Positions 3,369 to 60,746 are shown, numbered from the stretch's first letter. The stretch is DNA of 64,000 bases from Kiritimatiellia bacterium (GCA_034178815.1 JAXFQS010000084.1:2112-66111); one strand, 5' to 3'. Made by a program: numbers and translations. The notes: generated by a model from the sequence alone, not told the origin.

Positions 3369-3635
3369 TCAGCGGCTGATTGTCCAAGCCCCCGTCCTGC
3401 GCCGCCGCCCGAACCGATTCCGTCAACGGTACGCGCCGCCTGAAGCCTTTTGCCTGCCCGCACGAGGGGATTGCCGCACGCTTGGAGCCCATGCGCCGAC
3501 GCTCGCAAGAGGTACCAACCTAGCGAACCGATTTCTAGTCGACAATGGCGTCCGGGTGTGGTAAACTTTGGGTCGTTTAGGTTGGCACCTTTCGCCACCT
3601 TTCCTACGCACCTTTTTGCCCGAGGATTTTCCGCC

Positions 3636-4730
3636 ATGCTGATACTCGACAACGCCTTTGTCTCCGACTTTCTGGCCGACTTCGCCGAGCAGTCCGGTCG
3701 CCCCGTGCTCGACACGCCCAGCACCCGCTCGCGCCTGTCAGGGCGCCGCATCAACTGGGCCTCCAAAGCCGATTCCGGCCCGCACTACTCCACCTCTGAG
3801 AACGCCATTCCCCTAGTTGCGCAGGGCTTTTTCGGCGAAGAAATCAAGCGTATGGTCGGCTTGATGAAGGACAAAGCCCGCTTCCGTGAAGCCATCGCCG
3901 GCTGCTACCCCACCTTCCGCTGCGTGCGCGTCCCACTCGACGCCTTGAACGCCTGGACGCCAGACTTCTATCCCTTCGTCCTCAAGCCCGCCGTCGGCTT
4001 CCTGAGCGAAGGCGTCTACAATGTCCGAACCCCCGAGGAACTCGCCCGCGTCAAACGCGACATCTTGGATAACGCCCAGCGCAGCGCATTCTCCAAGGCC
4101 GTTGTCGACAAAACACTCTTCATCGCCGAAACCTTCCTCGACGGCCCCGAACTCGCAGCAGACGCCTTCTATCTCGACAACGGAACGCCCGTCATCACCA
4201 ACATCTACCTCCATCCCTTCAACGGCGCAGACGATGTCAGCGACCGTTGCTACATCACCTCGCGCTCCCTCCTCGATCGCTACCTCGAACCCATCCGCCA
4301 GGCCTATGCCACCATTGGCAAAACCCTCGGACTCAGCCGCATTCCCGTCCATGCCGAGTTCCGCGACACCGCCAGCGGAATCGTTCCAATCGAGTTCAAC
4401 CCTTTGCGCTTCGCCGGCTGGTGCACGACCGACTTGACCTGGTTTGCCTACCATATCAACCAGTACCAGCACTACTTCGACCAGCGCCAGCCCCAATTCC
4501 CCGAAGACGACGGGTGCCTTCACTATTTCATGCTCGCCGAAAGGCCCGCAGGCGTCGAGGGGAAACAATGCGACTACGCCGCTCTGCGCCAAGCCGTCCC
4601 CGGACTCGTTGAAATGCGTCCCATCGATTACAACCACAATCCCCTCGCCGCCATCAACTTCGGATCGGTTCCGGGGATGGCGGAAATCGACACCATTCTC
4701 AAGCTCGACATGGCCCAATTCTTCCACTGA
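3636..4730 (+). CDS. ATP-grasp domain protein (putative carboxylate-amine/peptide ligase), first gene of envelope operon
   Basis: ATP-grasp signatures: KDKARFREAI, FVLKPAVG (ATP-binding Lys), ETFLDGPELAADAF, HAEF; start at Met 3636, upstream ORF extension is low-complexity. Confidence 0.6.
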   Translation: MLILDNAFVSDFLADFAEQSGRPVLDTPSTRSRLSGRRINWASKADSGPHYSTSENAIPLVAQGFFGEEIKRMVGLMKDKARFREAIAGCYPTFRCVRVPLDALNAWTPDFYPFVLKPAVGFLSEGVYNVRTPEELARVKRDILDNAQRSAFSKAVVDKTLFIAETFLDGPELAADAFYLDNGTPVITNIYLHPFNGADDVSDRCYITSRSLLDRYLEPIRQAYATIGKTLGLSRIPVHAEFRDTASGIVPIEFNPLRFAGWCTTDLTWFAYHINQYQHYFDQRQPQFPEDDGCLHYFMLAERPAGVEGKQCDYAALRQAVPGLVEMRPIDYNHNPLAAINFGSVPGMAEIDTILKLDMAQFFH

Positions 4731-4741
4731 AGAACCGCCCG

Positions 4742-5851
4742 GTGATTCGAATCCGACACATCCGGTCTTACCTTGCGCTCCTGCTCCTCGGCGGTTGCGG
4801 TCAGCCCGTTCCCAAGGCAGAATCCAGACCTCAGGAAACGCCGCCGCCAGAGCCGCCCCCGCTCATCGTCGAGGTTGTTCCCCCCGAACCCGAGCCCTTC
4901 CGTCTCTACGCCCCGACCAGGCAGCACTGCCTCGACGGCAGCCGCGTGACCAACATCTTTATGCACGCTGGGAATGGCAACCCGGAGAGCGGGCTTTTTG
5001 GTTTCCAGCGTGCGGCGGCGGACGGCAGACCCAGGCTCCACGAGGGCATCGACATTGCACCGTTGGCGCGTGACAAACGCCGCCGACCGCTCGATGAAGT
5101 CACCGCCGCCGCAACGGGGACTGTCGCCTATGTCAACCGCCGCGCCGGGGATTCGTCCTACGGCATCTACATCGTCATTCTCCACCAAGCCCCTCATCTC
5201 GGACCTGTCTATACCCTCTATGCACACCTTGCTAGCATTGCCCCCGACATCAAGCCAGGAAAAACTGTCGTTGCTGGCAACCTTTTGGGGCGAATCGGCA
5301 ACACCCCCGGGTTTCCGCTCTCCCGCGCGCACCTCCACTTCGAATGCGGGCTAATCAACAACAACCGCTTTGCCCGCTGGTACCACGACCGCTACCTCAA
5401 GCGCCATCCCCCGAAAAAGAACCGCCCCCGACCTGCCGACCACGGTATCTTCCACGGCTCCAACCTCACGGGACTCAACCCGAACGACCTCTTCCGCATC
5501 CGTGCCGAAGACGCCAGCGTCCCCTTGCTTCCCTACCTCCGAGAGTTGCCCATCGCATTCACACTCCTCTGCAAAACCAATCGCATCCCCGACTACTTCC
5601 GCCGCTACCCCGCCCTCTGGAGCGGGGAGCCCTTCCGCCCGGGAACCATCCGACTAAGCGTCTCGCAGGAAGGGATTGTCCTGCGCGGCACGAACGAACC
5701 CGAATCGAACGAAGCAACAGCCCTCCCCAAAATCCTCGCCGTCAACACCACCCTGCCTGGACTTCTCGGTCGCCGCTATGTACGCCCCGACGGCGCGCGG
5801 TGGAAACTCACACCCTCGGGAGAAGAGTGGCTCGACGCCTTCCTCTACTGA
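4742..5851 (+). CDS. M23 family metallopeptidase lipoprotein (LytM/lysostaphin-like)
   Basis: lipobox LLLGGC, Pro-rich linker, HEGIDIAP (HxxxD) and HLHFE (HxH) M23 motifs; 12-nt gap from ATP-grasp gene. Confidence 0.7.
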   Translation: MIRIRHIRSYLALLLLGGCGQPVPKAESRPQETPPPEPPPLIVEVVPPEPEPFRLYAPTRQHCLDGSRVTNIFMHAGNGNPESGLFGFQRAAADGRPRLHEGIDIAPLARDKRRRPLDEVTAAATGTVAYVNRRAGDSSYGIYIVILHQAPHLGPVYTLYAHLASIAPDIKPGKTVVAGNLLGRIGNTPGFPLSRAHLHFECGLINNNRFARWYHDRYLKRHPPKKNRPRPADHGIFHGSNLTGLNPNDLFRIRAEDASVPLLPYLRELPIAFTLLCKTNRIPDYFRRYPALWSGEPFRPGTIRLSVSQEGIVLRGTNEPESNEATALPKILAVNTTLPGLLGRRYVRPDGARWKLTPSGEEWLDAFLY

Positions 5852-5857
5852 CACAGC

Positions 5858-6865
5858 ATGGCCGGAATCCGCATCGAAAACCTCACCAAGACCTACCCCG
5901 GCGGCTCGAAAGCCGTCGACAAAATCTCCCTCTCCATTGCTGACGGCGAGTTCATCGTACTCGTTGGCCCCTCCGGCTGCGGCAAGTCGACAACCCTCCG
6001 CATGGTGGCCGGGCTCGAAACCATCACCTCCGGCACAATCCACATCGGAGAACGCCTAGTCAACGACCTCCCCCCAAAAGCGCGCGACATCGCGATGGTC
6101 TTCCAAAACTACGCGCTCTATCCCCACATGAGCGTGGAAGAAAACATGGCATTCGGACTCAAACTCCGCAAAGTCCCGAAAGAAGAGATTCGCCGCCGCG
6201 TCGCCGAAACCGCCGCAGCCCTCGGTCTAGAACCCTACCTCAAACGCCGCCCATCCCAACTCTCCGGCGGCCAGCGCCAACGCGTGGCAGTCGGCCGCGC
6301 CATCGTCCGCCAACCAGCCGCATTCCTCTTCGACGAACCCCTCTCGAATCTCGATGCCAAAATGCGCGTAGAAATGCGCGAAGAGATTCACCGCCTACAC
6401 CGCCGCCTGGGCGCAACCATGCTCTATGTCACCCATGACCAAACCGAGGCAATGACCCTGGCCGACCGCGTCGTCGTGATGAACTCAGGCGTCATTCTCC
6501 AGACCGGAGCACCGTTGGAAGTCTACAACCGACCGGCCAATCTCTTCACCGCAGCCTTCATTGGAACGCCCCCGATGAATCTCGTCCCCGAGGGCGACCG
6601 CATCCTTGGGTTCCGTCCCGAAGATGCCCTTTTGACCGCCGAAACAGGCTCATTCGCGCTCCCCGAGGGTGTCGTGGAACTGCTTGAACCAGTGGGCGCG
6701 GAAACCATCGCCCATGTGAACCTTCCAGGGTGTTCGAGCCGCATCCAAGTCCGCCTTTCTCCCGATGCACCCATCCGCGAAGGTCAGCACCTGTCGCTCC
6801 ACATCAAAGCCGGGCGCCGCCACCTGTTCGACGCAGCCACGGGACAAAGAGTTGCCGACCGCTAA
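5858..6865 (+). CDS. ABC transporter ATP-binding protein, MalK/UgpC/MsiK type with C-terminal TOBE-like domain (no permease adjacent)
   Basis: Walker [10 protein letters not shown], signature LSGGQRQR, Walker [13 protein letters not shown]-loop YVTHDQ. Confidence 0.85.
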
Positions 6866-6871
6866 CCACCC

Positions 6872-8464
6872 TTGAAGGCCACCATTATGCAGCTCCGCTT
6901 CCCGACCGACACGCGCTGGCGTCTACTCCCGCTGGCCCTGATCGTTATCGCCTATGCCTTCTGGCCGGCAATTTCTTTCACACTGTGGGTTTTCGGAGAT
7001 ACTTCCGAGGACATGGCCTACGGCTGGGTGATTCCCTTGATTGTCGGGGCCATCGTCTGGAAGCGCCGAGATGCGCTCCGTTGTGCGGCGGAGAGCCCCA
7101 GCCTAGTGGGTACGCTTTCGTGGCTGATTGGGCTTCTGTTCTTCTGGATTGGCAGCCGCGGGAACCAGCAACGCTTTCTGCAGTTGGCACTGGTGTGGAT
7201 GGTTTGGGCGATACCGTATGCTTTCTGGGGATGGAGGGTGGCGAAGCTGATGATTTACCCGGCGTGCTACTCGCTTTTGATTATTCCTCTAAGTTTTCTG
7301 GACGCCATCACCTTTCCGCTCCGTCTGGCGTCTTCTTGGGTATCCGTGGCTCTGCTCAATGGTTTCGGCATCGAGGCGAGACGGATAGGAACGGCGCTGA
7401 TTGGAGCGAACTTCCAACTGGATGTGGCGGATCCTTGTAGCGGGATTCGTTCGCTTGTCGTGCTGTTGGCATTGACTGCTGGCTATGCGGGGATTCACCG
7501 CCACTTCCGGTGGTGGACGAAAGCTCTGCTGGTGGCATCTGCATTGCCGCTGGCCTTTCTGGGAAATATCATCCGGTTGACGACGACGGCAGTGGCGTGT
7601 GCCTGTTTCGGGCAAGAAATCGGGATGTACTATCACGACCAGGCGGGGTATCTGACCTTCCCGTTGGTGATGCTGATTGTCCTTGTGTTGGTCGACTACT
7701 TCTCGAATCGGCAGCCGGCTCCGCCGCTTCAACGGGAGACTCCGATTCCTTCCGCGGGGTGGATTTCGCTACTGCCAATCGGCGCCATGATGGGCATCTT
7801 CGTGACTGGCTCCTGGCTTATCCAAAGGCAGCCGCCGCCCGACTATGAGCCCGATTCCTACATTGCCCAGGCGCTTCCGGATGTGCCTGGTTTCACCTCC
7901 TCGTTCGACTTGCATTGCCAGAATCCGGACTGTCTCTTGTCGACCTCCAGCGACAAGAAAGCGTGCCCTCTCTGCGGCGGGAAACTGGAGCGTGTGCCGC
8001 TTGCCGAACTGACGATTCTGCCGTCGGACACGCGTTTCCTGAAGCGCAACTACACGGGGGCGGACGGGGTTCCTCTTCGGGTCAGCGTTTTAGTCTCCGG
8101 GCGCTCGCGGATGAGCATCCACCGTCCGGAGATGTGCCTTCCCGGGCAGGGCTACACGATTTCGGACAGCTATGTGGTGGAGATACCTCTGGCCGACGGT
8201 TCAACGGTCAAGGCCAACTGTGTCACGGCCGCGAGGCTGGGCGAACCTCCGGTTGGACTGCTCTATTGGTTTGAGAATCCGCACGGTAGCGCCTACTCGC
8301 ACTATGAGCGAATTTTCTCGGATATTTGGGCGCGGACGGTGCACAACCGGATGATTCGATGGAGCGCGATTCTGATTATGCGCGAACGCCCCTACGATGA
8401 GGCGGCGCTGGAGCAGACGGCGCAGTTTCTGAGCCTGTGGCGGCCTCGGGTGGTGCGCCGCTGA
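6872..8464 (+). CDS. exosortase (8-TM transpeptidase) fused to C-terminal EpsI-family domain containing a Cys4 zinc-ribbon insert
   Basis: exosortase motif VADPCSGIRSL within polytopic membrane region; C-terminal EpsI signature SIHRPEMCLPGQGYT; insert CQNPDCLLSTSSDKKACPLCGG. Confidence 0.75.
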   Translation: MKATIMQLRFPTDTRWRLLPLALIVIAYAFWPAISFTLWVFGDTSEDMAYGWVIPLIVGAIVWKRRDALRCAAESPSLVGTLSWLIGLLFFWIGSRGNQQRFLQLALVWMVWAIPYAFWGWRVAKLMIYPACYSLLIIPLSFLDAITFPLRLASSWVSVALLNGFGIEARRIGTALIGANFQLDVADPCSGIRSLVVLLALTAGYAGIHRHFRWWTKALLVASALPLAFLGNIIRLTTTAVACACFGQEIGMYYHDQAGYLTFPLVMLIVLVLVDYFSNRQPAPPLQRETPIPSAGWISLLPIGAMMGIFVTGSWLIQRQPPPDYEPDSYIAQALPDVPGFTSSFDLHCQNPDCLLSTSSDKKACPLCGGKLERVPLAELTILPSDTRFLKRNYTGADGVPLRVSVLVSGRSRMSIHRPEMCLPGQGYTISDSYVVEIPLADGSTVKANCVTAARLGEPPVGLLYWFENPHGSAYSHYERIFSDIWARTVHNRMIRWSAILIMRERPYDEAALEQTAQFLSLWRPRVVRR

Positions 8465-9585: not shown

Positions 9586-9717
9586 CGGCGACTAGGCAGG
9601 AGTCGCCTGCGTTGATACCAACCTTTCGGGCGAAACGATAGCCACCACACATGCCCCAAGGTGCCTATCCGACCGTGTGAAAGGTTCCCACCTATCCCCC
9701 TCCCCTAAAACAGAAAC

Positions 9718-9742
9718 GGGAGGTTGCGATAGGCAACCTCCC
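9718..9742. repeat. hairpin GGGAGGTTGC-gata-GGCAACCTCCC in convergent intergenic region; motif family member / bidirectional terminator candidate
   Basis: 10-bp perfect stem. Confidence 0.5.
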
Positions 9743-9768
9743 TCAGAGGGACACAGCCTGTCGAACGG

Positions 9769-13905: not shown

Positions 13906-13926
13906 AACGGTTGCGCCTTGGAAAGG

Positions 13927-16691: not shown

Positions 16692-16720
16692 TTGAACTTG
16701 GCTCTGCGTTGTGTTAGAAT
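16692..16720 (+). promoter_or_regulatory. sigma70-like promoter TTGAAC-17nt-TAGAAT upstream of esterase gene; -10 abuts start codon (possible leaderless mRNA)
   Basis: sequence match only; predicted TSS coincides with ATG at 16727 although a GGAGG lies between. Confidence 0.3.
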
Positions 16721-16726
16721 GGAGGC

Positions 16727-18503: not shown

Positions 18504-18549
18504 CCGCGCCGGACACCGTCGGAAAACGGGTTCGGCGCGCGCTTTTTTC
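18504..18549 (+). terminator. GC-rich hairpin followed by T6; candidate intrinsic terminator of esterase gene
   Basis: gcgccgg...cggcgcgcgcTTTTTT directly downstream of stop at 18475. Confidence 0.35.
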
Positions 18550-18706
18550 TCCGCAGGCGGCGGATAGGCAGGGATGGGGGGCAAAGGTGCCTACCCGAAG
18601 CGTGCGAAGGTTGCTCTCATCCGAGGCCAAAGGTTGATACCCGCCGCGCCCCGAGGGAGCCACCAGACGATGGCTGCGGAAAGTTGCCCCAAGAGGCAAC
18701 CGCGGC

Positions 18707-28025: not shown

Positions 28026-28209
28026 ATTAGCAGAAGCAAACATTCTTCTCAAGCCAAATCGCCCCGCACTCGGGAAAGATTGCAACCATCGCCCCCGACT
28101 CCCACCAAAGACCATCCCCCGAACCTGCCAATCACCTCCCCCATCTCCTGTCTACCGACCGCCCTCAGAGTTTCCTACGAAACAAATGCCCGCGTGCCCC
28201 GCTTTTGGC

Positions 28210-28238
28210 TTGTTTTTCGCCTTGAAAAGTGCTATTAT
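28210..28238 (+). promoter_or_regulatory. candidate promoter TTGTTT-17nt-TATTAT upstream of rpsA with approx. 150-nt structured leader
   Basis: sequence match only. Confidence 0.25.
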
Positions 28239-28396
28239 CTCGATTTTTCCGCATTCGGAGAAAAGACCGTGCGCCCGAGGCGAGTGCCATCGGGACTCTC
28301 GTGCGGCCCCATCCACAACCCACAGGGCAGAACGCGGGAACTCCAGCCATGCCGGCCGGAGCCGTATAGCGCGTTCCGCTCGAAAGCATCCAACTA

Positions 28397-30142
<1,746 letters not shown>

Positions 30143-31511: not shown

Positions 31512-31594
31512 GCGACTGCTCGGGGGAGCGGTTCCTAGCAATCCAACGGAGGCGGAGGTAGACACCTTGCGGGGATAGCGGTGCCTATCCAACG

Positions 31595-31621
31595 CCCCGG
31601 AAGGTTGCAACCTTTCGGGGG
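31595..31621. repeat. 27-bp near-perfect palindrome CCCCGGAAGGTTGCAACCTTTCGGGGG; member of intergenic motif family
   Basis: seen directly; one mismatch between arms. Confidence 0.6.
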
Positions 31622-31654: not shown

Positions 31655-33154
31655 ATGGAAGGAAGCGGAACAGTAAAGCGAATTGTGTTGCTGCTCGCGT
31701 GCGCACAGGCGGCGGTGGCGGCAGAAGTCGGCGGATTTTCGGTCTCGTGGAATGGGCGTCCGCTTAAGGTTCATCCGGCGCGGGTCTCGGCTTACCCGAT
31801 GAACCAGGTTTGGGCGGGATACCAACGCCCAATCGAGCAGACCCGGATGGCATCGTTCATATCTTTCGATATGGATGGCGCGGGCGAACTTGCTGTCGCC
31901 ATTCCCGAGGGCCAAACCAACGCCACGCCCATTTTGCTTCCCCTCTCGCGCAACTGGTCGACACGCACCGAAGGCGGAAAGTTCCGGATTGCCATCGACC
32001 ACCCGCAACAATTCGTGCTCAAGTTCGGCATCGAAGGTGAAGAACTACAGGTCTTTGCCAACCCGAGATTCGCCCGACCGGAAGGGAAGCAAATCACCTA
32101 CTTCGGACCAGGCGAACACCATGTCGGACTCATAGCCCCCGCCAGCGGAGAGACCATCGTCATCGATGAAGGCGCGGTTGTCTACGGGGCCATTCAAATC
32201 TTCCACGCCGAGAATGTCAAAGTAGTCGGGAGAGGTATTCTCGACGCCTCCTTCCTCCAGCGGGCGCAAACGAATTCCGCCGCCTATGCCAACGCCGTGC
32301 GCGCCGGATTCACACCTTCCCAGTACGGTGCCGAGATGGGGGTCACGGCGTTCACATGCGCCTGGGCGACCAATATCCTCGTAGAGGGCATCACCATTCG
32401 CGACCCACCGCGCTGGACGATGATTGTGCGCACGCAGTCCAAAAGGGTCACCATAGACAATGTGAAGATAGTCGGTTGCTGGCGCTACAACGCGGATGGG
32501 ATCAATGTGTGCGCATCCGAAGATGTTGTCATCCGGAACTGCTATCTGCGCACTTTTGATGACTGTATCATTGCACGCGGCTCCTACCTGGACAAGAGTG
32601 GGCCGGTCACCCGCAATCTGCTTGCGGAGAATTGCGTTCTCTGGTGCGACTGGGGGAAATGTCTTGAAGTCTGGGCGGGCGGGAGGCCCTGCACGATAGA
32701 GGAGGTCTCATTCCGCAATATTGCCTGCATCAGTCCCGATGAGATTGTCGCCGATGTCACCACTTGGTACGGCTCCTCCAACACCGTCATCCGCAACATT
32801 TGTTTTGAAAACATTGCTGTGGACTACTGGAGGAAGTACCCTGCCGCGCACTTCCAACGCGCACCGGAGGACACCGTTTTCCATGGGAAGTTGAGGGATT
32901 CTTCCAACCTCATCGTGGTCGATGTGGCCAGTTACGGCCATGATCTTGGCAATCAGAAATACCGTCCTGCCGAAGACCTTTCTCCGTTCAAAGTTCTCTA
33001 CGAAAATCTCACCTTCAAGAACTTCACCGTGCACGGCAATCCCCCTCGCCTGACGGGTCGCATCGATGGCTCGTCCGCGCCACACACCATCCGCGCCGTT
33101 CGTCTGGAAGGTATGCCCGAGGGGCTCGATTTGAAAATGAGCGGGGTTGACTAG
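31655..33154 (+). CDS. secreted right-handed beta-helix glycoside hydrolase, GH28-like (polygalacturonase/rhamnogalacturonase family)
   Basis: signal peptide; GH28-like motifs NADGIN, RTFDDCI, repeated beta-helix rungs. Confidence 0.55.
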   Translation: MEGSGTVKRIVLLLACAQAAVAAEVGGFSVSWNGRPLKVHPARVSAYPMNQVWAGYQRPIEQTRMASFISFDMDGAGELAVAIPEGQTNATPILLPLSRNWSTRTEGGKFRIAIDHPQQFVLKFGIEGEELQVFANPRFARPEGKQITYFGPGEHHVGLIAPASGETIVIDEGAVVYGAIQIFHAENVKVVGRGILDASFLQRAQTNSAAYANAVRAGFTPSQYGAEMGVTAFTCAWATNILVEGITIRDPPRWTMIVRTQSKRVTIDNVKIVGCWRYNADGINVCASEDVVIRNCYLRTFDDCIIARGSYLDKSGPVTRNLLAENCVLWCDWGKCLEVWAGGRPCTIEEVSFRNIACISPDEIVADVTTWYGSSNTVIRNICFENIAVDYWRKYPAAHFQRAPEDTVFHGKLRDSSNLIVVDVASYGHDLGNQKYRPAEDLSPFKVLYENLTFKNFTVHGNPPRLTGRIDGSSAPHTIRAVRLEGMPEGLDLKMSGVD

Positions 33155-33254
33155 CCAACGCGTCGACCTCCGGCACAGGTTCCTACCTGTCGCCCCCTAT
33201 GGTATCAACCTCCGGGAGACAGCCGAAGCAACCTTTGGGGAACTAAGGTGCGTA

Positions 33255-34007
33255 TCAATGTCCGGCAATCAGTTCCAGACAGATGCGGCGGGAGAGCAGC
33301 GGCAATTCCAGTTGCGCGCGCAGGATCATCCCCACCAGGCGCACGATCGGTTGCACGGCGGACGGGCTCTCCGGGAGGTCAGAGGAAAGCCCCGACCAAA
33401 GCCGTCCGGTCAACCGGATGAAGTCCTCGGCTACCTGGCGCGGAAGTCGGACGCTGCCGGGCTCCTCCTGCTCGAGAAAACACCCGTGGAGGTAGGAGAA
33501 GTTCGGCCACGCGGCCCCCTGCAGGACACCGTTTCCGTCCAACTTCGGCAAGAGCCCGAGATCCAACAGCAGATGGAGTTCATAGTCGAGCAGCACGACC
33601 GAAAGAGGGCGGCGCGGGGTGGATTCAAGCGCGTCAAGCGTTGATTCCAGTAGCGCGAAAATGGTTGGATTGGCCTGCTCCGGCTGAAGAACCGTCAGCG
33701 TCAGATCGCACAGATAACTCGCCGCGCAAACCGCCCGCCAGTCCGATCGGAGTCCTTCCCTCAGACGAATCGGCACGCACTCGCGCAGGGGATTCACCTC
33801 CTTCAGCCGATCCTGGTAGACGACAATTTCGCAAGTGTAGAAAAGGTCGTACTGCCCCACAAAACGGCTCTTGCTCCGCAGCGCCCCCTTGACTGAAGTG
33901 GTGACGATTCCCCGCTCCGCCGTGAGCCAGGTCACCATATGGGATGTGCGCGAGAAAGGCGCGATGCGGAGCGGCACCGCGCAATGTTTAGTCAGATTTC
34001 CCGGCAC
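33255..34007 (-). CDS. recO: DNA repair protein RecO
   Basis: N-terminal OB fold pattern (GIVTTSVKGALRSKSR...YDLFY), C-terminal helical domain; length 250 aa. Confidence 0.6.
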   Translation of the reverse strand: MPGNLTKHCAVPLRIAPFSRTSHMVTWLTAERGIVTTSVKGALRSKSRFVGQYDLFYTCEIVVYQDRLKEVNPLRECVPIRLREGLRSDWRAVCAASYLCDLTLTVLQPEQANPTIFALLESTLDALESTPRRPLSVVLLDYELHLLLDLGLLPKLDGNGVLQGAAWPNFSYLHGCFLEQEEPGSVRLPRQVAEDFIRLTGRLWSGLSSDLPESPSAVQPIVRLVGMILRAQLELPLLSRRICLELIAGH

Positions 34008-41634: not shown

Positions 41635-41708
41635 GCCTCACAGTATAGCACACTCTCGGGCGGGTGGGAATAGATTTTGAGCCGCGGGTGGGGGCAATCG
41701 GACGGCTA

Positions 41709-41877
41709 GCGGCGGGGCGACGAGAAGGTTGACAGGAGTTCTGCGAGGTATCCTTCTCTCAGTCCTTGGGAGCAGACCTCCAGTTCGCGGGCCTGGAGGC
41801 GTTTGACCAGGCGCATGAGGATGGACATACCGGGGAGGATGGTGTGGATGCGGTGGGAAACTTGGCTCAGGATGAGG
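41709..41877 (-). pseudogene. ppx: 3'-terminal remnant of exopolyphosphatase (Ppx/GppA) gene, approx. 56 codons
   Basis: translation ...ILPGMSILMRLVKRLQARELEVCSQGLREGYLAELL resembles end of Ppx/GppA actin-like domain II (E. coli PPX ...[35 protein letters not shown]); different frame from ppk fragment. Confidence 0.5.
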
Positions 41878-42729: not shown

Positions 42730-42841
42730 CACGCCGACACAATCGCACAATCGTGTTAGGGTTGTGTCAGCATTCTGCAGGCGGCGCGATTGGTGCGCAC
42801 CTCTAGCCCCCAAAGATACCCACCTCGGTTCCCCCTTCCAG

Positions 42842-42866
42842 CCAACCTCCGGGCCCCGAAGGTTGG
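42842..42866. repeat. palindromic element CCAACCTCCGGGCCCCGAAGGTTGG; motif family member
   Basis: seen directly. Confidence 0.55.
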
Positions 42867-42893
42867 CACCCGCCGGACGCGACGGAAGGCGGT

Positions 42894-47478: not shown

Positions 47479-48428
47479 GGTTTCTCATTGGATGGTTCGA
47501 GAACAAGGCGAAATCCGACGGCCGCATGGCGCGTAGAGGGGTTGCACATATCGCCGAGCCAGCGGGCGTAACTGGTGCAGGCGGAGTTGCTGCCGAAGAG
47601 GTAGTTCCAGTAACTTCCGGAGCGCAGGACGCGGGTCTTGCTCTTGGAACTTGCCGGGCCCTTGGGATTGTCTCCGGCGTAGGCGGGGTGGCCCGCGGGG
47701 GCGAACCAGTCGCGGCAGAATTCGTAGGCGTTGCCGTGCATATCGTAGAGTCCCCAGGCATTGGGGCGGTAGGAGCCGACAGGGGCAGGGCCGTTGGTGC
47801 AGCCTCCGTTGGCGAAGTAGCGGCCGAGGCGGTCGAGGGCGTGGTCAGACCAGTAGGGGATGGGTTTGCCGTCGGGGCTCGGACGGTCGTAGGGTTGAGC
47901 GTCGGAGCCGTCGTTCCAGCAGGTGTCGGTGCCGGCGCGGCAGGCGACCTCCCATTGGGCTTCGGTGGGCAGATCGAAGGGGAGTCCCGTGCGGGCGCGA
48001 AGTCGGCCGAGAATAGAGTTGGTGGCGACGGCGGGGCCGCTCTTGGGCCAGTCGATGCCTTCGCGCAGGGAGCCGCGCAGGTCATTGTAGGAGAGATTCA
48101 AAGCCGGGAGCGGCCCCGTATCCTGCGTACCTCCGAGATGGTTTAATTGGCTCCTTGTGGTCTCGAAGATGGCTATGAAATAGGGGCGGGTGATGCGAAC
48201 CTTACGGGCCTCATCGTTGGCACCTCTGGGGGCGGCGGGATTGCCGAGGCGGATGGGTTCGGGCGTGGGATCGACGCGACGCATCAACACCCATTCATCG
48301 CGCCAGCGGGGGCTCGCTTCGCCGCCGGGAATCGCTTCGCGGGAGGGATAGGTTTCAACCTCCGCAGGGCCACCACCGATACGAACCGCTAGATAGAGCG
48401 CAGAGGAAAGTAGCAAAATGGGATTCAC
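47475..48428 (-). CDS. FGE-sulfatase (formylglycine-generating enzyme/SUMF1-like) domain protein, paralogous to FGE domain of downstream giant protein
   Basis: GTG start with GGAGG 9 nt upstream, overlapping sigma stop (GTGA); motifs RPYFIAIFETTRSQ, DLPTEAQWEVACRAG, GSYRPNAWGLYDMHGNAYEF, RSGSYW...GFRLV. Confidence 0.6.
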   Translation of the reverse strand: MNPILLLSSALYLAVRIGGGPAEVETYPSREAIPGGEASPRWRDEWVLMRRVDPTPEPIRLGNPAAPRGANDEARKVRITRPYFIAIFETTRSQLNHLGGTQDTGPLPALNLSYNDLRGSLREGIDWPKSGPAVATNSILGRLRARTGLPFDLPTEAQWEVACRAGTDTCWNDGSDAQPYDRPSPDGKPIPYWSDHALDRLGRYFANGGCTNGPAPVGSYRPNAWGLYDMHGNAYEFCRDWFAPAGHPAYAGDNPKGPASSKSKTRVLRSGSYWNYLFGSNSACTSYARWLGDMCNPSTRHAAVGFRLVLEPSNEKP

Positions 48429-49462: not shown

Positions 49463-49464
49463 AA

Positions 49465-51879: not shown

Positions 51880-51925
51880 ACACTCTATTAGATGCGCCGG
51901 GACGCCTTTGGGTTCACCGCCCAAT

Positions 51926-53842: not shown

Positions 53843-54120
53843 AACTTAAGCCTCTAAGATTTAAAGATGCGCCCAATCAAAACCTAGTTCAAACAAAATT
53901 CACAAAATCAGCCACAACTGCTCCATCCCGCCCTCCAATGGCGCAAAAGATTCCTACCCCCGCCCCCAAAAGGAATCTATCACCGCAAACCTTTTCCAAA
54001 TACCCCTTACCCCCGTAGGTGTCAACCAACGCCAGCCACTCAAAAATACCATCTCAAAAGAGGCGGAAAACGCCAATCGCCACGCCCTTCCTGCTCAACA
54101 TCCGCCCCGCCAAACACCAG

Positions 54121-54158
54121 AACAAAAAAAAGGCGCGACCAAAAATGGCCGCGCCTCA
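54121..54158 (-). terminator. rho-independent terminator of proB operon (10-bp stem, U8)
   Basis: minus-strand RNA AGGCGCGGCC-auuuuu-GGUCGCGCCU-UUUUUUUU immediately downstream of proB stop. Confidence 0.7.
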
Positions 54159-54184
54159 AACACCTTTCGATATGGCAGATAGGC

Positions 54185-55003: not shown

Positions 55004-55010
55004 AGTTTGA

Positions 55011-56486
55011 TTAGGCACTGTAAGTGGTGGAGGTCGTGCTCCCGCCCGTAGCCGTCCAAATGTGGTGGAAAAACTCGCCCCTAGGAGCATCCGTGCGCTC
55101 GAAAGTGTGCGCTCCGAAGTAATCCCGCTGGGCCTGAAGCAGATTTGCCGGCAGGCGCGCGCTGCGGTAGGAATCATAGTAGTTCAACGCAGTCGACATC
55201 GCCGGCACGGGAATCCCCCACTCCACCGCGCACTTGACCACATTCCGCCAAGCAGCCTGCCCCTGCGAGAGAATCCTGCTGAAATAGCCGTCCAAAAGAA
55301 GGTTCGGCAGAGCCGGATCCTTCTCGAACGCCGCCTTGATTTCACCTAGAAAACGCGCCCGGATGATACACCCTGCACGCCACACCAGTGCGATTTCCCC
55401 GTAGTTCAACTCCCACTTGTACTCCTCCGCCGCCGCGCGTAGCAGTTGGAACCCTTGCGCGTAAGAGCAGATTTTGGATGCGTAGACAGCTTTCTCCAAA
55501 TCCCTTACAAACTCCGAGACCCCAACCTTAGCAGCAACGCGTCTCGGTCCTGCCAACCGTTTGGACGCCTCCACTCGTTCCTCTTTGATTGCGGAAAGGC
55601 ACCGGGCGAAGACCGCCGCGGCAATCTGCGGAATCCCGACGCCCAAATCAAGTCCCGCCTGACTCGTCCACTTCCCCGTTCCCTTCTGCCCGGCCGTGTC
55701 CAGAATGACATCCACCATCGGCTTGCCGGTCTGCGCATCCTTTTGCTTGAGGATTTCCTGGGTAATGTCAATCAGATAACTGTCGAGTTTGCCCCTGTTC
55801 CAGCGCGCAAAGACCTTCTGCATGGCCTTGACATCCAGCCCGAGCCCCCTCGCCATCAGGTCGTACGCCTCGCAAACCAACTGCATGTCGCCGTACTCAA
55901 TGCCATTGTGGACCATCTTGACAAAATGTCCCGCGCCATCGGCGCCCATCCACGCGCAACAAGGCGAGCCGTCGGGCGCTTTGGCGGCAATGGACTGGAA
56001 GATTCGGCGGATGGACGGCCACGCTTTCTTGTCGCCCCCCGGCATGATTGCAGGCCCCAGCAAAGCCCCTTCCTCGCCGCCAGAGACCCCCGAACCGACA
56101 AACCGGATGCCCTTCTCGGCAAGCGCCTTCGCCCGACGAATCGTGTCGGGATAGTGGGTGTTTCCGCCGTCGATCAGAATGTCGCCCTTCTCCAACTCCG
56201 GGAGCAACGACTCGATGGTCGCGTCCACCGCCGCGCCAGCCTTCACCATCATCATAATGCGCCGAGGCTTGGCGAGGGAAGCAACGAATTCCTTGACAGA
56301 GTGGCAAGGAATGACCCTCTTTCCTTTGCCCCTTCCCTGGACAAAGGTGTCCACCTTCGAGACCGTTCGGTTGAAAACCGCGACCGTGAAACCATGGCGC
56401 TCCATGTTCAAGACAAGGTTTTCCCCCATGACCGCGAGGCCTATCAAACCGATGTCGGCAAGGGATTTCTTTGCAGGCTTTTTCAT
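55011..56486 (-). CDS. gnd: 6-phosphogluconate dehydrogenase, decarboxylating
   Basis: Rossmann N-terminus IGLIGLAVMGENLVLN, GSGVSGGEEGA, conserved C-terminal dimerisation domain. Confidence 0.9.
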   Translation of the reverse strand: MKKPAKKSLADIGLIGLAVMGENLVLNMERHGFTVAVFNRTVSKVDTFVQGRGKGKRVIPCHSVKEFVASLAKPRRIMMMVKAGAAVDATIESLLPELEKGDILIDGGNTHYPDTIRRAKALAEKGIRFVGSGVSGGEEGALLGPAIMPGGDKKAWPSIRRIFQSIAAKAPDGSPCCAWMGADGAGHFVKMVHNGIEYGDMQLVCEAYDLMARGLGLDVKAMQKVFARWNRGKLDSYLIDITQEILKQKDAQTGKPMVDVILDTAGQKGTGKWTSQAGLDLGVGIPQIAAAVFARCLSAIKEERVEASKRLAGPRRVAAKVGVSEFVRDLEKAVYASKICSYAQGFQLLRAAAEEYKWELNYGEIALVWRAGCIIRARFLGEIKAAFEKDPALPNLLLDGYFSRILSQGQAAWRNVVKCAVEWGIPVPAMSTALNYYDSYRSARLPANLLQAQRDYFGAHTFERTDAPRGEFFHHIWTATGGSTTSTTYSA

Positions 56487-56521
56487 CCTTGGATACTCCT
56501 TCTGCGGAAGTCAATCAAATG

Positions 56522-57376
56522 TCAGACTCCTGAATAGGCAGCAAATCCGCCATCAATCGGAATGACCGTGCCGGTCACGAACCCGGCGGCCTCATTGGAA
56601 ACCAGCCAAAGGAGCGCCCCCAGCAAATCCTGCGGCTCGCCGAACTTGCCCATAGGAGTGTGCGCGATGATTTTGTCCGCCCTCGGAGTGAGCGAACCGT
56701 CAGGGTTGGTGAGCAAGGCGCGATTCTGGTCAGTGAGGAAAAACCCCGGGGCAATGGCGTTGACACGAATGCCAACCTTTGAAAAGTGGACGGCGAGCCA
56801 TTGGGTGAAATTGCTGACGGCCGCCTTGGCGCCGGAATAGGCCGGAATCTTGGTCAGCGGACGGAACGCATTCATCGAAGAAATGTTGACAATGCAGCCT
56901 TTGCCCCGCGTGGCCATCTGCCGCGTAAAGACCTGCGTGGGCAAGAGCGTTCCGAGAAAATTGAGGTTAAAGGTGAACTCGATTCCCTTGGGGTCAAGTT
57001 CGTAAAAAGAAACGGTCTCCCGGGGAACACCGGAAAGATCCGCCGGCTCCAGATACTCCTTTGCCGTGGTGCCATTAGGATGATTCCCGCCGGCGCCGTT
57101 GAGCAGAAGCGTGACAGGTCCGAGTTCGGCTTCAATGCGGGCATTTGCCTCTTCGAGACTCCCCCGGTCGAGCACATTGCACGCAACGGCGAGAGCCTTC
57201 CCACCTGCCTGGCGGATTGCTTCAACAGTCTTCTCCGCTGCCTCTGGCTTGAGGTCTGCGACAGCAACCGCCGCGCCACATTCGGCCAAAGCCTTGGCCA
57301 TTGCACGGCACAAGACACCACCGCCGCCGGTGACTACGGCGACCTCTCTTGAAAGGTCAACTTTGAAGGGAACCAT
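56522..57376 (-). CDS. SDR-family NAD(P)-dependent oxidoreductase (sugar-acid/polyol dehydrogenase-like)
   Basis: TGGGGVLC (TGxxxGxG), NGAG, catalytic S...YSGAKAA (YxxxK). Confidence 0.8.
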   Translation of the reverse strand: MVPFKVDLSREVAVVTGGGGVLCRAMAKALAECGAAVAVADLKPEAAEKTVEAIRQAGGKALAVACNVLDRGSLEEANARIEAELGPVTLLLNGAGGNHPNGTTAKEYLEPADLSGVPRETVSFYELDPKGIEFTFNLNFLGTLLPTQVFTRQMATRGKGCIVNISSMNAFRPLTKIPAYSGAKAAVSNFTQWLAVHFSKVGIRVNAIAPGFFLTDQNRALLTNPDGSLTPRADKIIAHTPMGKFGEPQDLLGALLWLVSNEAAGFVTGTVIPIDGGFAAYSGV

Positions 57377-57380
57377 TTGC

Positions 57381-57887
57381 CTACTCCTCATTTTGGGGAA
57401 TGCCACGCACGGCAACCAGCCGCACCTCGGAATCCTCCAAACGATTCAAATCCCGCTCTAGGCGAATGTCTATCGTCCCGGGCGGAAAGACATCCCCAGC
57501 CCGCTCTGGCCACTCGACGGCAATGATTGCACGGCGTTCGAGCAAATCGTCGAACCCGATATCCTCCAGCAGCGTCCCTTCGGCCATTCGATAGAGGTCG
57601 AGATGCGCGAAGACGCCCCCATCGGGGAGCGGATACTCCTGCACCAGCGCGAAGGTTGGACTGGTCACGGGGCGTGTCACCCCCAACGCCCGTGCGAGAG
57701 CCTGAACGAAGGTGGTTTTCCCCGCACCAAGGTTGCCGTGGAGACGCATGACGCTCCCCGCCGCCAAGGCTGGAGCCAAGCGCGCGGCCAAGCGCGCGGT
57801 CTCGGCGGGCGAAGCGCAGATCTCAGTCCACTCGTTCAACAATGATTTCCGGGTCGACGGTCTGGCGCAGGTGGGCCTGGACGCCAT
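57381..57887 (-). CDS. tsaE: tRNA threonylcarbamoyladenosine biosynthesis protein TsaE (P-loop ATPase)
   Basis: Walker A GNLGAGKTTF, SPTFALVQEY, HLDLYR; true start probably downstream of 57887 because ORF 5' end overlaps nfu. Confidence 0.7.
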   Translation of the reverse strand: MASRPTCARPSTRKSLLNEWTEICASPAETARLAARLAPALAAGSVMRLHGNLGAGKTTFVQALARALGVTRPVTSPTFALVQEYPLPDGGVFAHLDLYRMAEGTLLEDIGFDDLLERRAIIAVEWPERAGDVFPPGTIDIRLERDLNRLEDSEVRLVAVRGIPQNEE

Positions 57888-58053
57888 CGCGCAGGGTCAT
57901 GGCGGCGTGGGGACAGCACCCGCAGGCACCGCGCAGGCGCACCAGCACATTCTTTCCTTCGATGGAGACCAGTTCCAGATCGCCGCCGTCGTTCTGAAGC
58001 ATCTGGCGGACATTGTCGAGTTCGGCGCGGAGCGCCTGTTCATCAAGAGGCAT
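57823..58053 (-). CDS. NifU-like (Nfu) Fe-S cluster scaffold domain protein
   Basis: approx. 77 aa, CxxC motif GACGCCPHAAMTL. Confidence 0.7.
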   Translation of the reverse strand: MPLDEQALRAELDNVRQMLQNDGGDLELVSIEGKNVLVRLRGACGCCPHAAMTLRDGVQAHLRQTVDPEIIVERVD

Positions 58054-58157
58054 AACACAATCCTTCCGTTTTCGGCACGGGTCAACGGCGCTCATTATAC
58101 TCTAAACTGTCCCCCGACTCAAGCCTTTATCGGCGCGCGCGCCGAGAGGGTGTCTGG

Positions 58158-58197
58158 ATAAAAAAATGAGCGGTTCTGGGGGGGCAGAACCGCTCAA
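58158..58197 (-). terminator. strong hairpin (11-bp stem, G7 loop) followed by U7 on minus strand, upstream of nfu; candidate attenuator/riboswitch expression platform or sRNA terminator
   Basis: minus-strand RNA GAGCGGUUCUG-ccccccc-CAGAACCGCUC-AUUUUUUU. Confidence 0.45.
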
Positions 58198-58569
58198 CCG
58201 GCCAAGGCAGGAATATTCTCACCTTGACCGGGGTGGACGCTGGGGGGCAGCGTCCGTGACAGGGCGTGTTGGGAACCCTGTCGGGGTGGGTGTGAAGAGA
58301 CGATACCAAAATGCCGCACCCCGATGCAAGAGAATTCGTCCGCTGTCCCAAAAAATCTTTCGATGCCACCCCCGAAACGATTCCCTAGCACCTTCGGGAG
58401 TCATCGATGCGCACGACCGGAACGCCAAGTTGAGCACCTTTCGCCTCCATAAATACCCACCCGCTGCCGGCTGAGATTGCAACCTTTCCCGCTACGGCGC
58501 GGGTATGAGATTGATTTTTCCCGCCATTTATCCTACACTCTCCCTAAACTCACCCTCAGGACACCCCCA

Positions 58570-60669
58570 ATGACCCGTCACGGCGCACTGCCGACCCTAT
58601 TCCTCGGTTCCTTCCTGCTTTTCGGACTCCAACCGCTGACCGGCAAAACCCTATTGCCCGTACTGGGCGGCTCGGCCGGTGTCTGGCTCATCTGCCTCGG
58701 ACTCTTCCAGACCCTCCTGCTCGCTGGCTACCTCTACGCCCACCTCTACACCACCCGCAATCCCCTCTCCCAGCCGAAAATCCTCTGCCACGCCGGGCTG
58801 GTGCATGCGGCCGGACTGGCGACCTTTTTCCTGATTGCGCCCAACTACGCCCACTGGCTCGGGGAACTGCCGAAAAACCCACTAGGCATCGCCCTGGCCG
58901 TGCTCCTTCTAGCGGGCTCAAGTTACATCCTTCTCTCGGCGAACAGCTCCCTCGTCCAAACCTGGGTCTCCCACACCTCCCAACGCCGCGATGTCTACTG
59001 GCTCTACGGCCTCTCCAACGCCGGAAGTCTCCTCGCCCTAGTCCTCTATCCGCTGGCAATCGAACCCTATATTCCCCTGCAATGGCAGTGGAGAGCGTTT
59101 GGTCTCCTCCTCACGATCTACGGTGCCAGCCTCCTCCAATTCATCAACGCCCGGCCCGGCTTCAACCCGCCAAAAGCCCCCGAACCAGGCACGCAAAAGG
59201 GCGGAATCCTGCTTTGGATAGCCCTCCCAGCGCTCTCAACCCTGCTGCTCAACGCCACCACCTTGCACCTGATGAGCGATGCATCCCCGATGCCGCTTCT
59301 CTGGACACTGACCCTCGCGGCCTTTCTCGCCTCCTGGATGGTTGGATTCACGCCAATCGCCGAGAAAGCAATCCACCTTTTGGCCCTGTTGGCGCTTATC
59401 GCGGCGGGTTATGCGGGCTATTGCAGCACCCGGCCAGGCGAACAAGGATTTCTCCTCAACCTACTCGCCGCCGGCGCCCTTTTGTTGCCGGGATGCGCCT
59501 TTCTCCACGCTTGGCTCTATGCCTCAAGACCGAAAGCCGAGCGCCTGACGCTCTTCTACCTCTGCTTGGCGGCGGGCGGCGCGATCGGGGGCGCATTCGC
59601 CTCATTCCTAGCCCCGCTTCTCTTCAACTCCATAGCCGAATATCCGCTCGCCCTCGGGGGGCTTTCCTTGGCGGCGGCGAGCCTGCTTCATAGCCGTTCC
59701 AAATGGGTTTGGGCGGGTTGCGCGGCGGCGCTTTTCCTTGCGGCAAGACCCTTTTGGCAACCCGACTCGCTCGACTTTTTCTACGCGCGCCGCAACGCAT
59801 ACGGTGTGAGCCGGGTGGCGAATCACCTGCTCTCCTATGGTTCGCAAGGCACCTTCAAGACGCACCTTTTCCTGCACGGCTCGACCTGGCACGGAATGCA
59901 GATTTGGGACAATGATTTCTACCATCTCGATCCTACGCTCTACCACACCTCCAACGCCGTCGGCAAGGCGGTTTCGACCCTTCCGGCATTCACCAACGGG
60001 GCTCCTCTGCGCGTAGCCATCCTCGGCATGGGGGCGGGGGTCTGCACCGTCTACGGGCGAACCAACGACCTCTACCGTTGCTACGAAATCAACCCCCAAG
60101 TCGTTGAGCTGGCGACCAATTCCACCTGTTTCACCTTTGTGCGCGACGCCCAGGCAACGGTTGAAATCGCCGTTCAGGACGCCCGCCAAGGGTTGGCTCG
60201 CGAAGCCCGCGAGCGCCAGCCACGCTACGATCTCATCATCCTCGATGTCTATTCCGGCGACTCGATACCGCTGCACCTTGCCACAAGGGAGGCCTTCGAC
60301 CTCTTCCTATCCCGCCTCAAGCCCGGCGGAACTATTGCCCTGCACCTGACGAACTGGCATCTCGATTTGCTACGCCTCTGCCGCGCCGTCCGCGACGAAC
60401 TCCACCTCCAAGTCCGGGCCGAGCAAATCACCGGCGATCGGTTCGGCTCTCCCTGCGTCTGGTGCTACCTCAACCGCGGCGATGCCCCCTTGCCCTCGGG
60501 CGGGCGCGAAATCGACCTCGACCGCGTCAAGAAAGTGCCCCTGATGACCGATGAACGGTGCAGTCTCCTGCCCTTCATCTCCTTCAGCGCCCAGCAACTT
60601 CCATTCCGCGAGAATGCCGCCTTCTGGGACAACCTCTTCGCCCCGAAAGATTACAACCTCATCCACTGA
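58570..60669 (+). CDS. membrane-fused spermidine/spermine synthase-like protein (N-terminal polytopic domain + aminopropyltransferase-like fold)
   Basis: approx. 12 predicted TM helices then VAILGMGAGVCTV, YEINPQVVELA, DLIILDVYSGD, LKPGGTIALH. Confidence 0.55.
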   Translation: MTRHGALPTLFLGSFLLFGLQPLTGKTLLPVLGGSAGVWLICLGLFQTLLLAGYLYAHLYTTRNPLSQPKILCHAGLVHAAGLATFFLIAPNYAHWLGELPKNPLGIALAVLLLAGSSYILLSANSSLVQTWVSHTSQRRDVYWLYGLSNAGSLLALVLYPLAIEPYIPLQWQWRAFGLLLTIYGASLLQFINARPGFNPPKAPEPGTQKGGILLWIALPALSTLLLNATTLHLMSDASPMPLLWTLTLAAFLASWMVGFTPIAEKAIHLLALLALIAAGYAGYCSTRPGEQGFLLNLLAAGALLLPGCAFLHAWLYASRPKAERLTLFYLCLAAGGAIGGAFASFLAPLLFNSIAEYPLALGGLSLAAASLLHSRSKWVWAGCAAALFLAARPFWQPDSLDFFYARRNAYGVSRVANHLLSYGSQGTFKTHLFLHGSTWHGMQIWDNDFYHLDPTLYHTSNAVGKAVSTLPAFTNGAPLRVAILGMGAGVCTVYGRTNDLYRCYEINPQVVELATNSTCFTFVRDAQATVEIAVQDARQGLAREARERQPRYDLIILDVYSGDSIPLHLATREAFDLFLSRLKPGGTIALHLTNWHLDLLRLCRAVRDELHLQVRAEQITGDRFGSPCVWCYLNRGDAPLPSGGREIDLDRVKKVPLMTDERCSLLPFISFSAQQLPFRENAAFWDNLFAPKDYNLIH

Positions 60670-60746
60670 TTCCTACACGCCAGCCGCCCCCGACCCTGCC
60701 AACCTCCGGGGGCGGCTGATGCCAACCTTTTTCCCCATTCGAAACG

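Follow-up and report, generated by a model that had tools for sequence, protein, structure and literature searches.

Families of short repeats in bacterial intergenic DNA, such as the repetitive extragenic palindromes (REPs) with the bacterial interspersed mosaic elements (BIMEs), and the short tandemly repeated repetitive sequences (STRRs), were recognised decades ago, and what they do is still a matter of debate. REPs and their BIME-2-type clusters occur in enterobacteria and pseudomonads. BIMEs are DNA binding sites for gyrase and IHF, and the STRRs of cyanobacteria are short tandem heptamer repeats in intergenic DNA. Short sites are also arrayed in plasmid iterons, which lie at 22-23-bp spacing, in the heptad arrays of the omega repressor, and in MetJ boxes. 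DNA uptake sequences and uptake signal sequences (DUS/USS) occur at about one copy per kb on both strands and are also over-represented in coding DNA. REPs are stem-loops of 20-40 bp in which the stem measures about 6-9 bp and one end bears an unpaired GTAG (or CGTC) tetranucleotide; they are situated mostly in gaps between convergent genes or genes of the same direction, near 3' ends, and GTAG REPs are abundant in Opitutus terrae, a bacterium of the Planctomycetes-Verrucomicrobia-Chlamydiae (PVC) group (PMC3733652); REPINs are a related class (PMC3116915). A role in translation has been proposed for the TAACTGA heptamer repeats of Beggiatoaceae, Cyanobacteria and Bacteroidetes (PMC4679880). 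Here we describe a family of short repeats in a 64 kb stretch of ordinary chromosome (60% G+C) from an uncultured Kiritimatiellia bacterium of the PVC group, the whole of which is called the window below. The motifs of the window form one lineage-specific family of short intergenic repeats, whose units stand in eight arrays with an exact period of 23 bp.

The unit is about 18 nt long, with the consensus GGTA-s-C-m-ACCTTT-s-GG, and has the dyad GGT-N4-ACC as its base. When 30 units are aligned (G7 G8 T9 A10 s C m A14 C15 C16 T17 T T s G21), the informative positions are those of this dyad, and in an ideal unit both arms reach CCGAAAGGT..ACCTTTCGG. An earlier note on this DNA had reported a GC-rich palindromic motif with three separate cores, as copies scattered over at least ten intergenic regions. 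The motif is indeed present at every site it listed. The three cores merge into a single unit, in which GGATAGGCACCTT, the reverse complement of AAGGTGCCTATCC, forms the left part and the right arm is CAACCTTTCGGG or CAACCTCCGGG; the scattered copies become regular arrays; and the number of regions holds for eight with clear arrays, the rest being two or three with single weak units (830-844, 53944-54169, 41644-41736). The weak copy that the note placed at 28078-28094 is a lone unit and falls inside the 5' end annotated for a gene of the DtxR family.

Intergenic DNA was defined by a hand-curated gene map and comprises 4.1 kb, 6.4% of the window. The pattern CAACCTYYSGG has 8 matches, compared with 0.41 +/- 0.64 in dinucleotide shuffles, so that the recurrence noted earlier is real, and 8/8 are intergenic (P ~3e-10); GGTNNNNACCTYY has 19 matches in the window against 1.68 +/- 1.23 in shuffles. 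Other patterns are shared with genes: [AC]ACCT[TC][TC][CG]G has 31 matches in the window (14/31 intergenic), CAACCT has 17 intergenic and 51 coding matches, and ACCTTTCG has 5 and 1, respectively. An unbiased k-mer comparison put CAACCT, ACCTTT and AACCTT at the top of the intergenic-enriched words, and in it GTTGATAC and GATAGGCA had 4 intergenic and 0 coding matches. Perfect copies of GGTNNNNACC number 13 in intergenic and 19 in coding DNA, an intergenic density 10-fold the coding density. With a position weight matrix, the window holds 4.1 matches per kb of intergenic DNA and 0.25 per kb of coding DNA at 12 bits or more, and 6.1 and 0.48 per kb at 11 bits or more, the latter threshold giving 55 matches in the 64 kb (about 0.86 per kb); these matrix counts are partly circular because the matrix was trained on the intergenic units themselves, a circularity from which the regular-expression counts are free. 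Equal frequency inside coding regions, which the earlier note had named as an observation that would tell against its motif, is not what the window contains, and the intergenic enrichment stands.

The period was found by writing the intergenic regions in rows of 23 nt, whereupon the motif fell into one column. About 30 units form the eight arrays, with 2 to 6 units each, and their centre-to-centre distance is exactly 23 bp whichever arm is the better preserved. All five distances of up to 140 bp between perfect intergenic GGTNNNNACC cores are 23, 46, 46, 69 and 69 bp; among cores matching at 5 or more of the 6 positions, 19/33 distances are exact multiples of 23; and with a pattern fixed before the period was noticed, 6/7 adjacent same-strand distances are multiples of 23. 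Taken by dyad centre with orientation ignored, the strong units have a neighbour at +/-23 bp in a fraction of 0.50, at +/-46 in 0.40 and at +/-69 in 0.19, and none has one at +/-22 or +/-24. Reversed units are likewise in phase by dyad centre, the phasing being independent of orientation. Linkers are no more alike within arrays (identity 0.32) than between them (0.33; permutation p = 0.67), and this lack of extra similarity led us to reject recent local tandem duplication as the origin of the arrays. Tandem Repeats Finder detected 0 of the 8 arrays in the window, because the sequence outside the core is too diverged. That the linkers have diverged to saturation and the register is exact nonetheless suggests that selection keeps the 23-bp spacing of the units; a register centred on the dyad that outlasts linker similarity is poorly explained by drift alone. 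The indels available for comparing arrays with other intergenic DNA were three in all, too few to reveal a deficit.

Matrix enrichment is confined to the window and two sets of loci from close relatives. One set (L001, L081 and L082) is from one species-level relative with 91.5% nucleotide identity to the window, and the other (L083 and L084) from one organism of run ERR12318434, with a TyrRS 87% identical and 53-55% G+C. Units in L084 again lie 23 or 46 bp apart (1366/1389/1435 and 10006/10029/10052/10098), and the core and a 23/24-bp period are shared with L083/L084 in intergenic regions that can no longer be aligned. In orthologous intergenic regions of L083 arrays are present with differing unit numbers and mostly flipped orientation, and L083 312-535 has a clear array where the window (53944-54169) has only weak units. 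By contrast, 44 other Kiritimatiellia loci have 0.12 matches per kb of intergenic DNA, and the matrix scan found no units of the family at loci of relatives with TyrRS identities of 77% and 75%. Absent as it is from 46 other Kiritimatiellia loci in all, the family delimits a clade of about the depth of a genus. A metagenome scan with CAACCTYYSGG-N12-CAACCTYY gave at least 120 loci with a single match each, for a 33-bit pattern from which hundreds of chance matches are expected in a collection of that size; by matrix scan none of the matches listed was a family member, and the few dense loci were unrelated repeats of other organisms. The TyrRS of the window is itself 97% identical to that of the metagenome-assembled genome (MAG) 'Kiritimatiellia bacterium PUUB40_bin.015', others in a species-representative genome set reaching at most 72%.

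Across 415 bp of arrays at 8.5% divergence there is no gain or loss of a unit and no indel. Linkers are 73.7% identical to the 91.5% relative, third codon positions 83.1% and other intergenic DNA 82.5%. Substitutions in the units often exchange consensus variants, for example TGCC for TATC before AACCT, and the core positions least conserved between species are T9 and A10. At array 4 the left arm of a palindrome is gone from L001 and GGTAGCAACCTTTTGGGGG is retained, and at array 5 the linkers have changed and the cores are retained.

The arrays (Table 1) together occupy about 21% of the intergenic DNA of the window, either in the space that separates a terminator from the promoter or start codon after it or where convergent genes meet. 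Two have convergent neighbours, three separate an intrinsic terminator or a stop codon from the gene that follows, one has units on either side of a sigma-70-like promoter, one fills the space between two divergent promoters, and one runs into a start codon, the window's promoters being consensus matches or readings by eye; several arrays are closer to the downstream start than to the upstream stop. The better arm is on the + strand, the C-rich strand by GC skew, in 7/8 arrays (p = 0.07, one window). Pfam domains of about 40 window open reading frames (ORFs) show the flanking genes to be functionally unrelated, and the genes of the window at large are housekeeping ones: Mur ligase, endonuclease III, topoisomerases, EF-G, ribosomal protein S1, TyrRS, RecO, fatty-acid genes resembling polyketide synthase (PKS) genes, 6PGD, TsaE, glycosidases and extracytoplasmic function (ECF) sigma factors.

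Table 1. Repeat arrays, isolated units and adjoining features of the window, with examples of tandem arrays from other Kiritimatiellia
Feature	Position	Strand	Remarks
Array 1	3506..3622	+	matrix scores 16.6, 11.6, 11.1, 11.0 bits; ahead of ATP-grasp gene (ATG 3636)
Array 1, palindromic unit	3506-3525	+	GGTACC core; upstream of -35
Array 1, further units	3574-3596, 3597-3619	+	just downstream of promoter -10
Array 1, sigma-70-like promoter	3539-3567		TCGACA-17-TAAACT
Array 2	9608..9745	+	six 23-nt rows, one reversed unit (9654-9676)
Array 2, neighbours (convergent)			D12 methyltransferase (ends 9585); TMEM260-like/TPR protein (stop 9769)
Array 3	18556..18647	-	four units, better arm on minus strand; 16.4, 10.3, 14.5 bits, starts 23 nt apart
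Array 3, neighbours			intrinsic terminator of esterase gene (18517-18550); gyrB/parE-like gene
Array 4	31551..31620	+	three units, middle one reversed; perfect 22-bp palindrome CCGAAAGGTTGCAACCTTTCGG
Array 4, neighbours			tyrS (stop 31511); GH28/beta-helix gene (ATG 31655)
Array 5	33149..33263	+	five units, last one reversed; convergent GH28 gene (ends 33154) and recO (stop 33255)
Array 6	42786..42877	+	four units
Array 6, neighbours			terminator of M60-peptidase gene (42928-42893, minus, 13 pairs); start of polyphosphate kinase gene (minus)
Array 7	58354..58491	+	six units filling the space that separates two divergent promoters (readings by eye)
Array 7, promoter 1	-35 at 58329-58324	-	conserved candidate small RNA
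Array 7, promoter 2	58511-58539		TTGATT-17-TACACT; fused MFS/spermidine-synthase-like gene (ATG 58570)
Array 8	60666..60757	+	four units, last one overlaps start codon
Array 8, neighbours			spermidine-synthase-like gene (stop 60669); SBF-family transporter gene (ATG 60747)
Isolated unit CGTATCAACCTGTCT	830..844	-	11.2 bits; just upstream of Mur-ligase gene
Three weak isolated units	53944-53958, 54013-54027, 54161-54169		strand not assigned
Weak single unit region	41644-41736
Examples of arrays in relatives	L002 9968-9998; L022 2263-2300; L037 9969-9992; L026 3376-3423; L045 10-70

Gene calls are affected by the arrays. First-start calls at 58477, 42813 and 18707 (spermidine-synthase-like, polyphosphate kinase and gyrB/parE-like genes) begin in or upstream of arrays or promoters, and the true starts of these three genes are probably further downstream, for example at ATG 58570; the call for the SBF transporter gene in L081 has 21 extra codons, which carry it into array 8. 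In practice the units mark gene boundaries, and several start calls that overlap arrays are probably too far upstream. The units also provide a lineage marker for metagenomic binning, and contig breaks in these MAGs are likely to stem from them.

We tentatively favour, at somewhat less than even probability, the reading that the arrays are phased double-stranded DNA sites for a putative dimeric protein that binds cooperatively, in the manner of REP/BIME clusters. What leads us to it is the combination of a dyad with a fixed spacer, phasing by dyad centre, orientation independent of transcription, stability between species, and a register that has outlasted the linkers. Each dyad core would be a site for one putative dimer; cooperative binding by adjacent dimers would let selection hold the core and the 23-bp register and let the linkers drift; and the arrays would then serve, within non-coding DNA, as protein-DNA blocks of an architectural or insulating kind, in the way that the gyrase- and IHF-binding BIME clusters do in enterobacteria. 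Where both arms are intact, a unit or a junction of units could also fold as a hairpin, one of which, at 9718-9742, has apparently been taken over as an intrinsic terminator. The earlier note had suggested sites for a global regulator, and of this the binding-site part is what we would retain: an abundant architectural or cooperative protein is the favoured binder, and a classical regulon regulator is disfavoured, no functional theme being common to the neighbouring genes and two of the arrays having convergent genes on either side. The operator of a specific regulon was rejected likewise, the neighbouring genes being unrelated housekeeping genes.

Several observations weigh against such DNA sites. 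Most units have one good arm only, which is unusual for the site of a symmetric dimer, and the two arrays between convergent genes offer no obvious job for a transcriptional regulator. The binder is itself putative, and the sequence at hand comes to 64 kb from the source genome plus about 33 kb from its close relatives, so that genome-wide claims are extrapolations. Conservation at particular positions is suggestive, with 94% identity (103/110; P ~0.001 uncorrected) at positions 7, 8 and 13-17 compared with 83% at third codon positions and in other intergenic DNA, a weak test in that these positions were picked after seeing the data, and the pre-specified core (positions 9, 10, 13-17) is 86.5% identical, not significantly different from 83%. 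The many different young arrays in relatives, described below, point to a class-wide mutational tendency for which function need not be invoked. Finally, there is an excess of copies inside genes that a binding model does not predict, with 30 coding matches at 11 bits or more compared with 9.0 +/- 2.9 (about 3.3-fold) in a shuffle that preserves proteins and codon usage.

Other Kiritimatiellia have ratios of 0.98 and 0.85 with this shuffle, and unrelated controls 1.38, which shows the null to be adequate and the coding excess to be specific to the lineage of the window. The coding copies are mostly single and show no preference for strand or reading frame, and for simple sub-words the enrichment in genes is only 1.1-1.6-fold. 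A few lie 23 or 46 bp apart (L084 6189-6226 and 4149-4232; window 48192-48229). One L084 pair, 23 bp apart, is in a PKS-like gene that aligns without gaps with its ortholog in the window, so that this pair arose by substitution and not by insertion.

The best surviving alternative, which we consider rather unlikely, is that of a selfish or neutral interspersed repeat without host function, spread like REPs, REPINs or miniature inverted-repeat transposable elements (MITEs) or produced by replication slippage, with a core that reflects the copying mechanism. One argument for it comes from other Kiritimatiellia, in which every lineage has its own unit. About 600 kb of relatives contain 59 intergenic tandem arrays, of which 29/59 have a period of 7, 14 or 21 bp (17, 8 and 4 arrays, respectively) and 12/59 a period of 22, 23, 44 or 46 bp; many are young, with units 85-100% identical, and unrelated control loci gave AT-rich oddities only. 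One of their units, (GTCAACA)n, is the STRR3 word CAACAGT in another register. As a class, Kiritimatiellia thus abound in intergenic tandem arrays that are specific to a lineage and have periods of 7, 14, 21 or 22/23 bp; the literature searched gave no account of this, nor anything relevant on the sequence string of the unit. The spread of the window family also resembles that of REPs in being extragenic: occupied intergenic regions are 2/2 convergent, 5/9 tandem and 1/3 divergent, small numbers to be sure, and the relatives' arrays fall in 28 tandem, 14 convergent and 6 divergent regions, the same bias as in REPs, whose GTAG kind abounds in the PVC bacterium O. terrae (PMC3733652). Against a selfish origin stand the absence of unit gain or loss between genomes 8.5% apart, the exact register among units that are no more alike within arrays than between them, the lack of a 6-9-bp stem and of a GTAG/CGTC tag, and the phased pairs acquired by substitution in the gap-free L084 gene. 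No transposase domain was found among the roughly 40 window ORFs, and no REP-associated tyrosine transposase (RAYT) was visible in the window.

A bolder form of protein binding, to which we give a low probability, is a previously unrecognised chromatin-like system of a PVC lineage, in which an abundant lineage-specific dimer would assemble along intergenic DNA as a polymer with 23-bp steps. Selected point substitution, and not duplication, would have made its sites and kept them in register. If true, it would explain why weakly constrained coding segments have too many sites and now and then a phased pair, and the 7-bp and 22/23-bp families of other Kiritimatiellia would be its co-evolving counterparts.

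It is quite improbable, in our estimate, that the units act in RNA, whether by masking or mimicking ribosome-binding sites or as hairpins that end or stabilise transcripts. The core CACCUUUC / CAACCUCC does resemble the 3' end of 16S rRNA (the anti-Shine-Dalgarno), its complement being Shine-Dalgarno-like; arrays 1 and 8 reach a start codon in sense orientation, and 6/8 arrays are sense to a neighbouring gene. In L002, L022 and L037, moreover, heptamer arrays such as (CCTGAAC)n and (AACCGTC)n stand directly upstream of the tyrS start, which lacks a Shine-Dalgarno sequence, a parallel to the TAACTGA repeats (PMC4679880). The remaining 2/8 arrays are antisense to both neighbours, however, orthologous arrays in L083 differ in orientation, arrays 3 and 7 are upstream of promoters read by eye, and the phasing follows the dyad centre and no strand-specific feature.

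Folding speaks to the same question. Three of 13 array folds are more stable than shuffles (z <= -2.2) and 10/13 are not, and stems of at least 10 bp are present in only 3 of the roughly 30 units or junctions. The two perfect hairpins described earlier both exist. That at 31595-31621 is a single unit with both arms intact; that at 9718-9742 pairs the last unit of array 2 with its mirror image over 10 bp (z = -3.07) and on the minus strand runs straight into GTTTCTGTTT, which makes it the best terminator-like site of its region and the only array hairpin with the look of a terminator. A 12-bp stem surrounds one unit of array 8 (z = -3.98) and is not conserved in L081; neither the hairpin at 31595-31621 nor that at 60678-60718 is conserved in the 91.5% relative, although the unit consensus is kept there. 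At 42842-42866 the reported 'hairpin' turns out to be the junction of two adjacent units, and folds of array 6 have z = -1.5 and -0.03. Values of +0.34 and -0.59 leave array 7 without RNA structure. Clear terminators, with a hairpin and a T tract, lie apart from the units (18517-18550, 42928-42893, 54157-54124, 58196-58160, 61863-61826). Mixed orientation, arrays upstream of promoters and mostly unremarkable folds leave RNA-level structure, one of the readings suggested earlier, without support as a general explanation, and, as only 9718-9742 fits, intrinsic termination was rejected as the role of all copies.

The remaining alternative, which we regard as very improbable, is a genome-wide signature word of biased DNA uptake or recombination, comparable to the DUS/USS of Neisseria and Haemophilus or to Chi, which would accumulate where it is tolerated and therefore be mostly intergenic. 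The density at 11 bits or more is like that of DUS/USS, and the coding excess, with its ratios of about 1 in other Kiritimatiellia, the indifference of the coding copies to strand and frame, the inverted pairs that double as a terminator, and the lineage-specific 'dialects' would all suit such a word. Uptake sequences, however, lack exact 23-bp phasing in arrays, the 10-16-fold intergenic bias is far above that familiar from DUS/USS, and the sub-word enrichment in genes is slight. Clustered regularly interspaced short palindromic repeats (CRISPR), in which repeats of 23-50 bp alternate with unique spacers about as long, usually near cas genes, were dismissed in view of an entire period of 23 bp, 2-6 units at each of 8 loci, and no cas domains found among the window proteins.

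Some further features were noted in passing. Rfam 15 at gathering score and a tRNA scan gave no match at the motif sites of the window; the sole Rfam match at or above that score in the window is RNase P RNA (61863-62212, minus strand), which is directly followed by a strong intrinsic terminator (61826-61863, minus; 14 pairs and TTTTTGTT). Next to array 7, window 58160-58295 (minus) probably encodes a small RNA of about 135 nt, predicted from a promoter TTGCAT-18-TATCGT (58329-58300) and a terminator (58196-58160). This candidate is 98.6% identical to the 91.5% relative, compared with 82% in flanking intergenic DNA, has compensatory changes in three stems in L083, and carries C-rich loops or unpaired stretches (CCCACCC, CCCCCC, CCCCCCC) like small RNAs that pair with ribosome-binding sites; it matched no Rfam family, with mmgR and Rhizobiales-2 below threshold only. 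We considered a link between its C-rich loops and the G-runs of the units and found no supporting evidence. The 5' leader (28230-28396) of rpsA (ribosomal protein S1, 28397-30142), downstream of TTGAAA-17-TATTAT, is 90.4% identical to L001, compared with 82.5% for other intergenic DNA, has no Rfam match at gathering score, and may be autoregulatory.

Among the relatives, L021 11690-11850 and L017 2980-3132 represent an orthologous region downstream of the tyrS operon, in which a heptamer array and its reverse complement (GTCGACA in L021, AGCCGAC in L017) flank a centre of about 85 bp. Relative to the flanking genes that both species share, this centre points in opposite directions in the two, which could be due to recombination between the inverted arrays or to a dedicated invertible switch. 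An unrelated metagenome contig, L156 (OBMK010063025.1), has at 1-720 long arrays of 10-12-nt units, such as GGCAACCTTTC and GGCATCCCATTT, and the likeness of GGCAACCTTTC to the core of the window is probably a coincidence.

Compared with known systems, the window family resembles in habit the REPs and BIME-2 elements, and the REP-like character suggested earlier holds to that extent: it is short, partly palindromic, high-copy and extragenic (with a 10-16-fold intergenic density), lies in convergent and same-direction gaps, as far as the small numbers of the window go, and forms regular arrays with both unit orientations, some terminator-like hairpins, and families specific to a species or genus. 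It departs from them in that its conserved dyad has 3 bp per side and a 4-bp spacer, in contrast to REP stems of 6-9 bp, in that there is no unpaired GTAG/CGTC (a minority GTAG, GGTAGGCACC, is inside the dyad and not at the end), in that 23 bp is the length of the unit as well as of the period, no separate linker motifs standing between the tiled units, and in that there is neither a RAYT in the window nor presence/absence turnover at 8.5% divergence. We therefore rate it as no member of the GTAG/CGTC REP families and as a new variation on known intergenic repeat families, with an unusually clean signature. With STRR and TAACTGA repeats it shares its intergenic, lineage-specific short repeats, often abutting start codons, and its relatives carry true heptamer arrays; unlike them it has a period of 23 bp, a dyad core and degenerate linkers, and Tandem Repeats Finder found no heptamer array in the intergenic DNA of the window. 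DUS/USS are matched in a frequency near one per kb, a coding excess, the lack of strand bias, inverted-pair terminators and dialects, but not in phased arrays or in so strong a restriction to intergenic DNA. As in iteron and operator arrays, short sites stand at a fixed register, direct or inverted, and would be read by cooperative dimers; those arrays occupy few loci, by a replication or partition gene or in a regulon, whereas the arrays of the window are present in most of its larger intergenic regions. The likeness to BIME clusters and to iteron and operator arrays is thus one of a proposed way of working, by analogy, which does not make the family a member of either.

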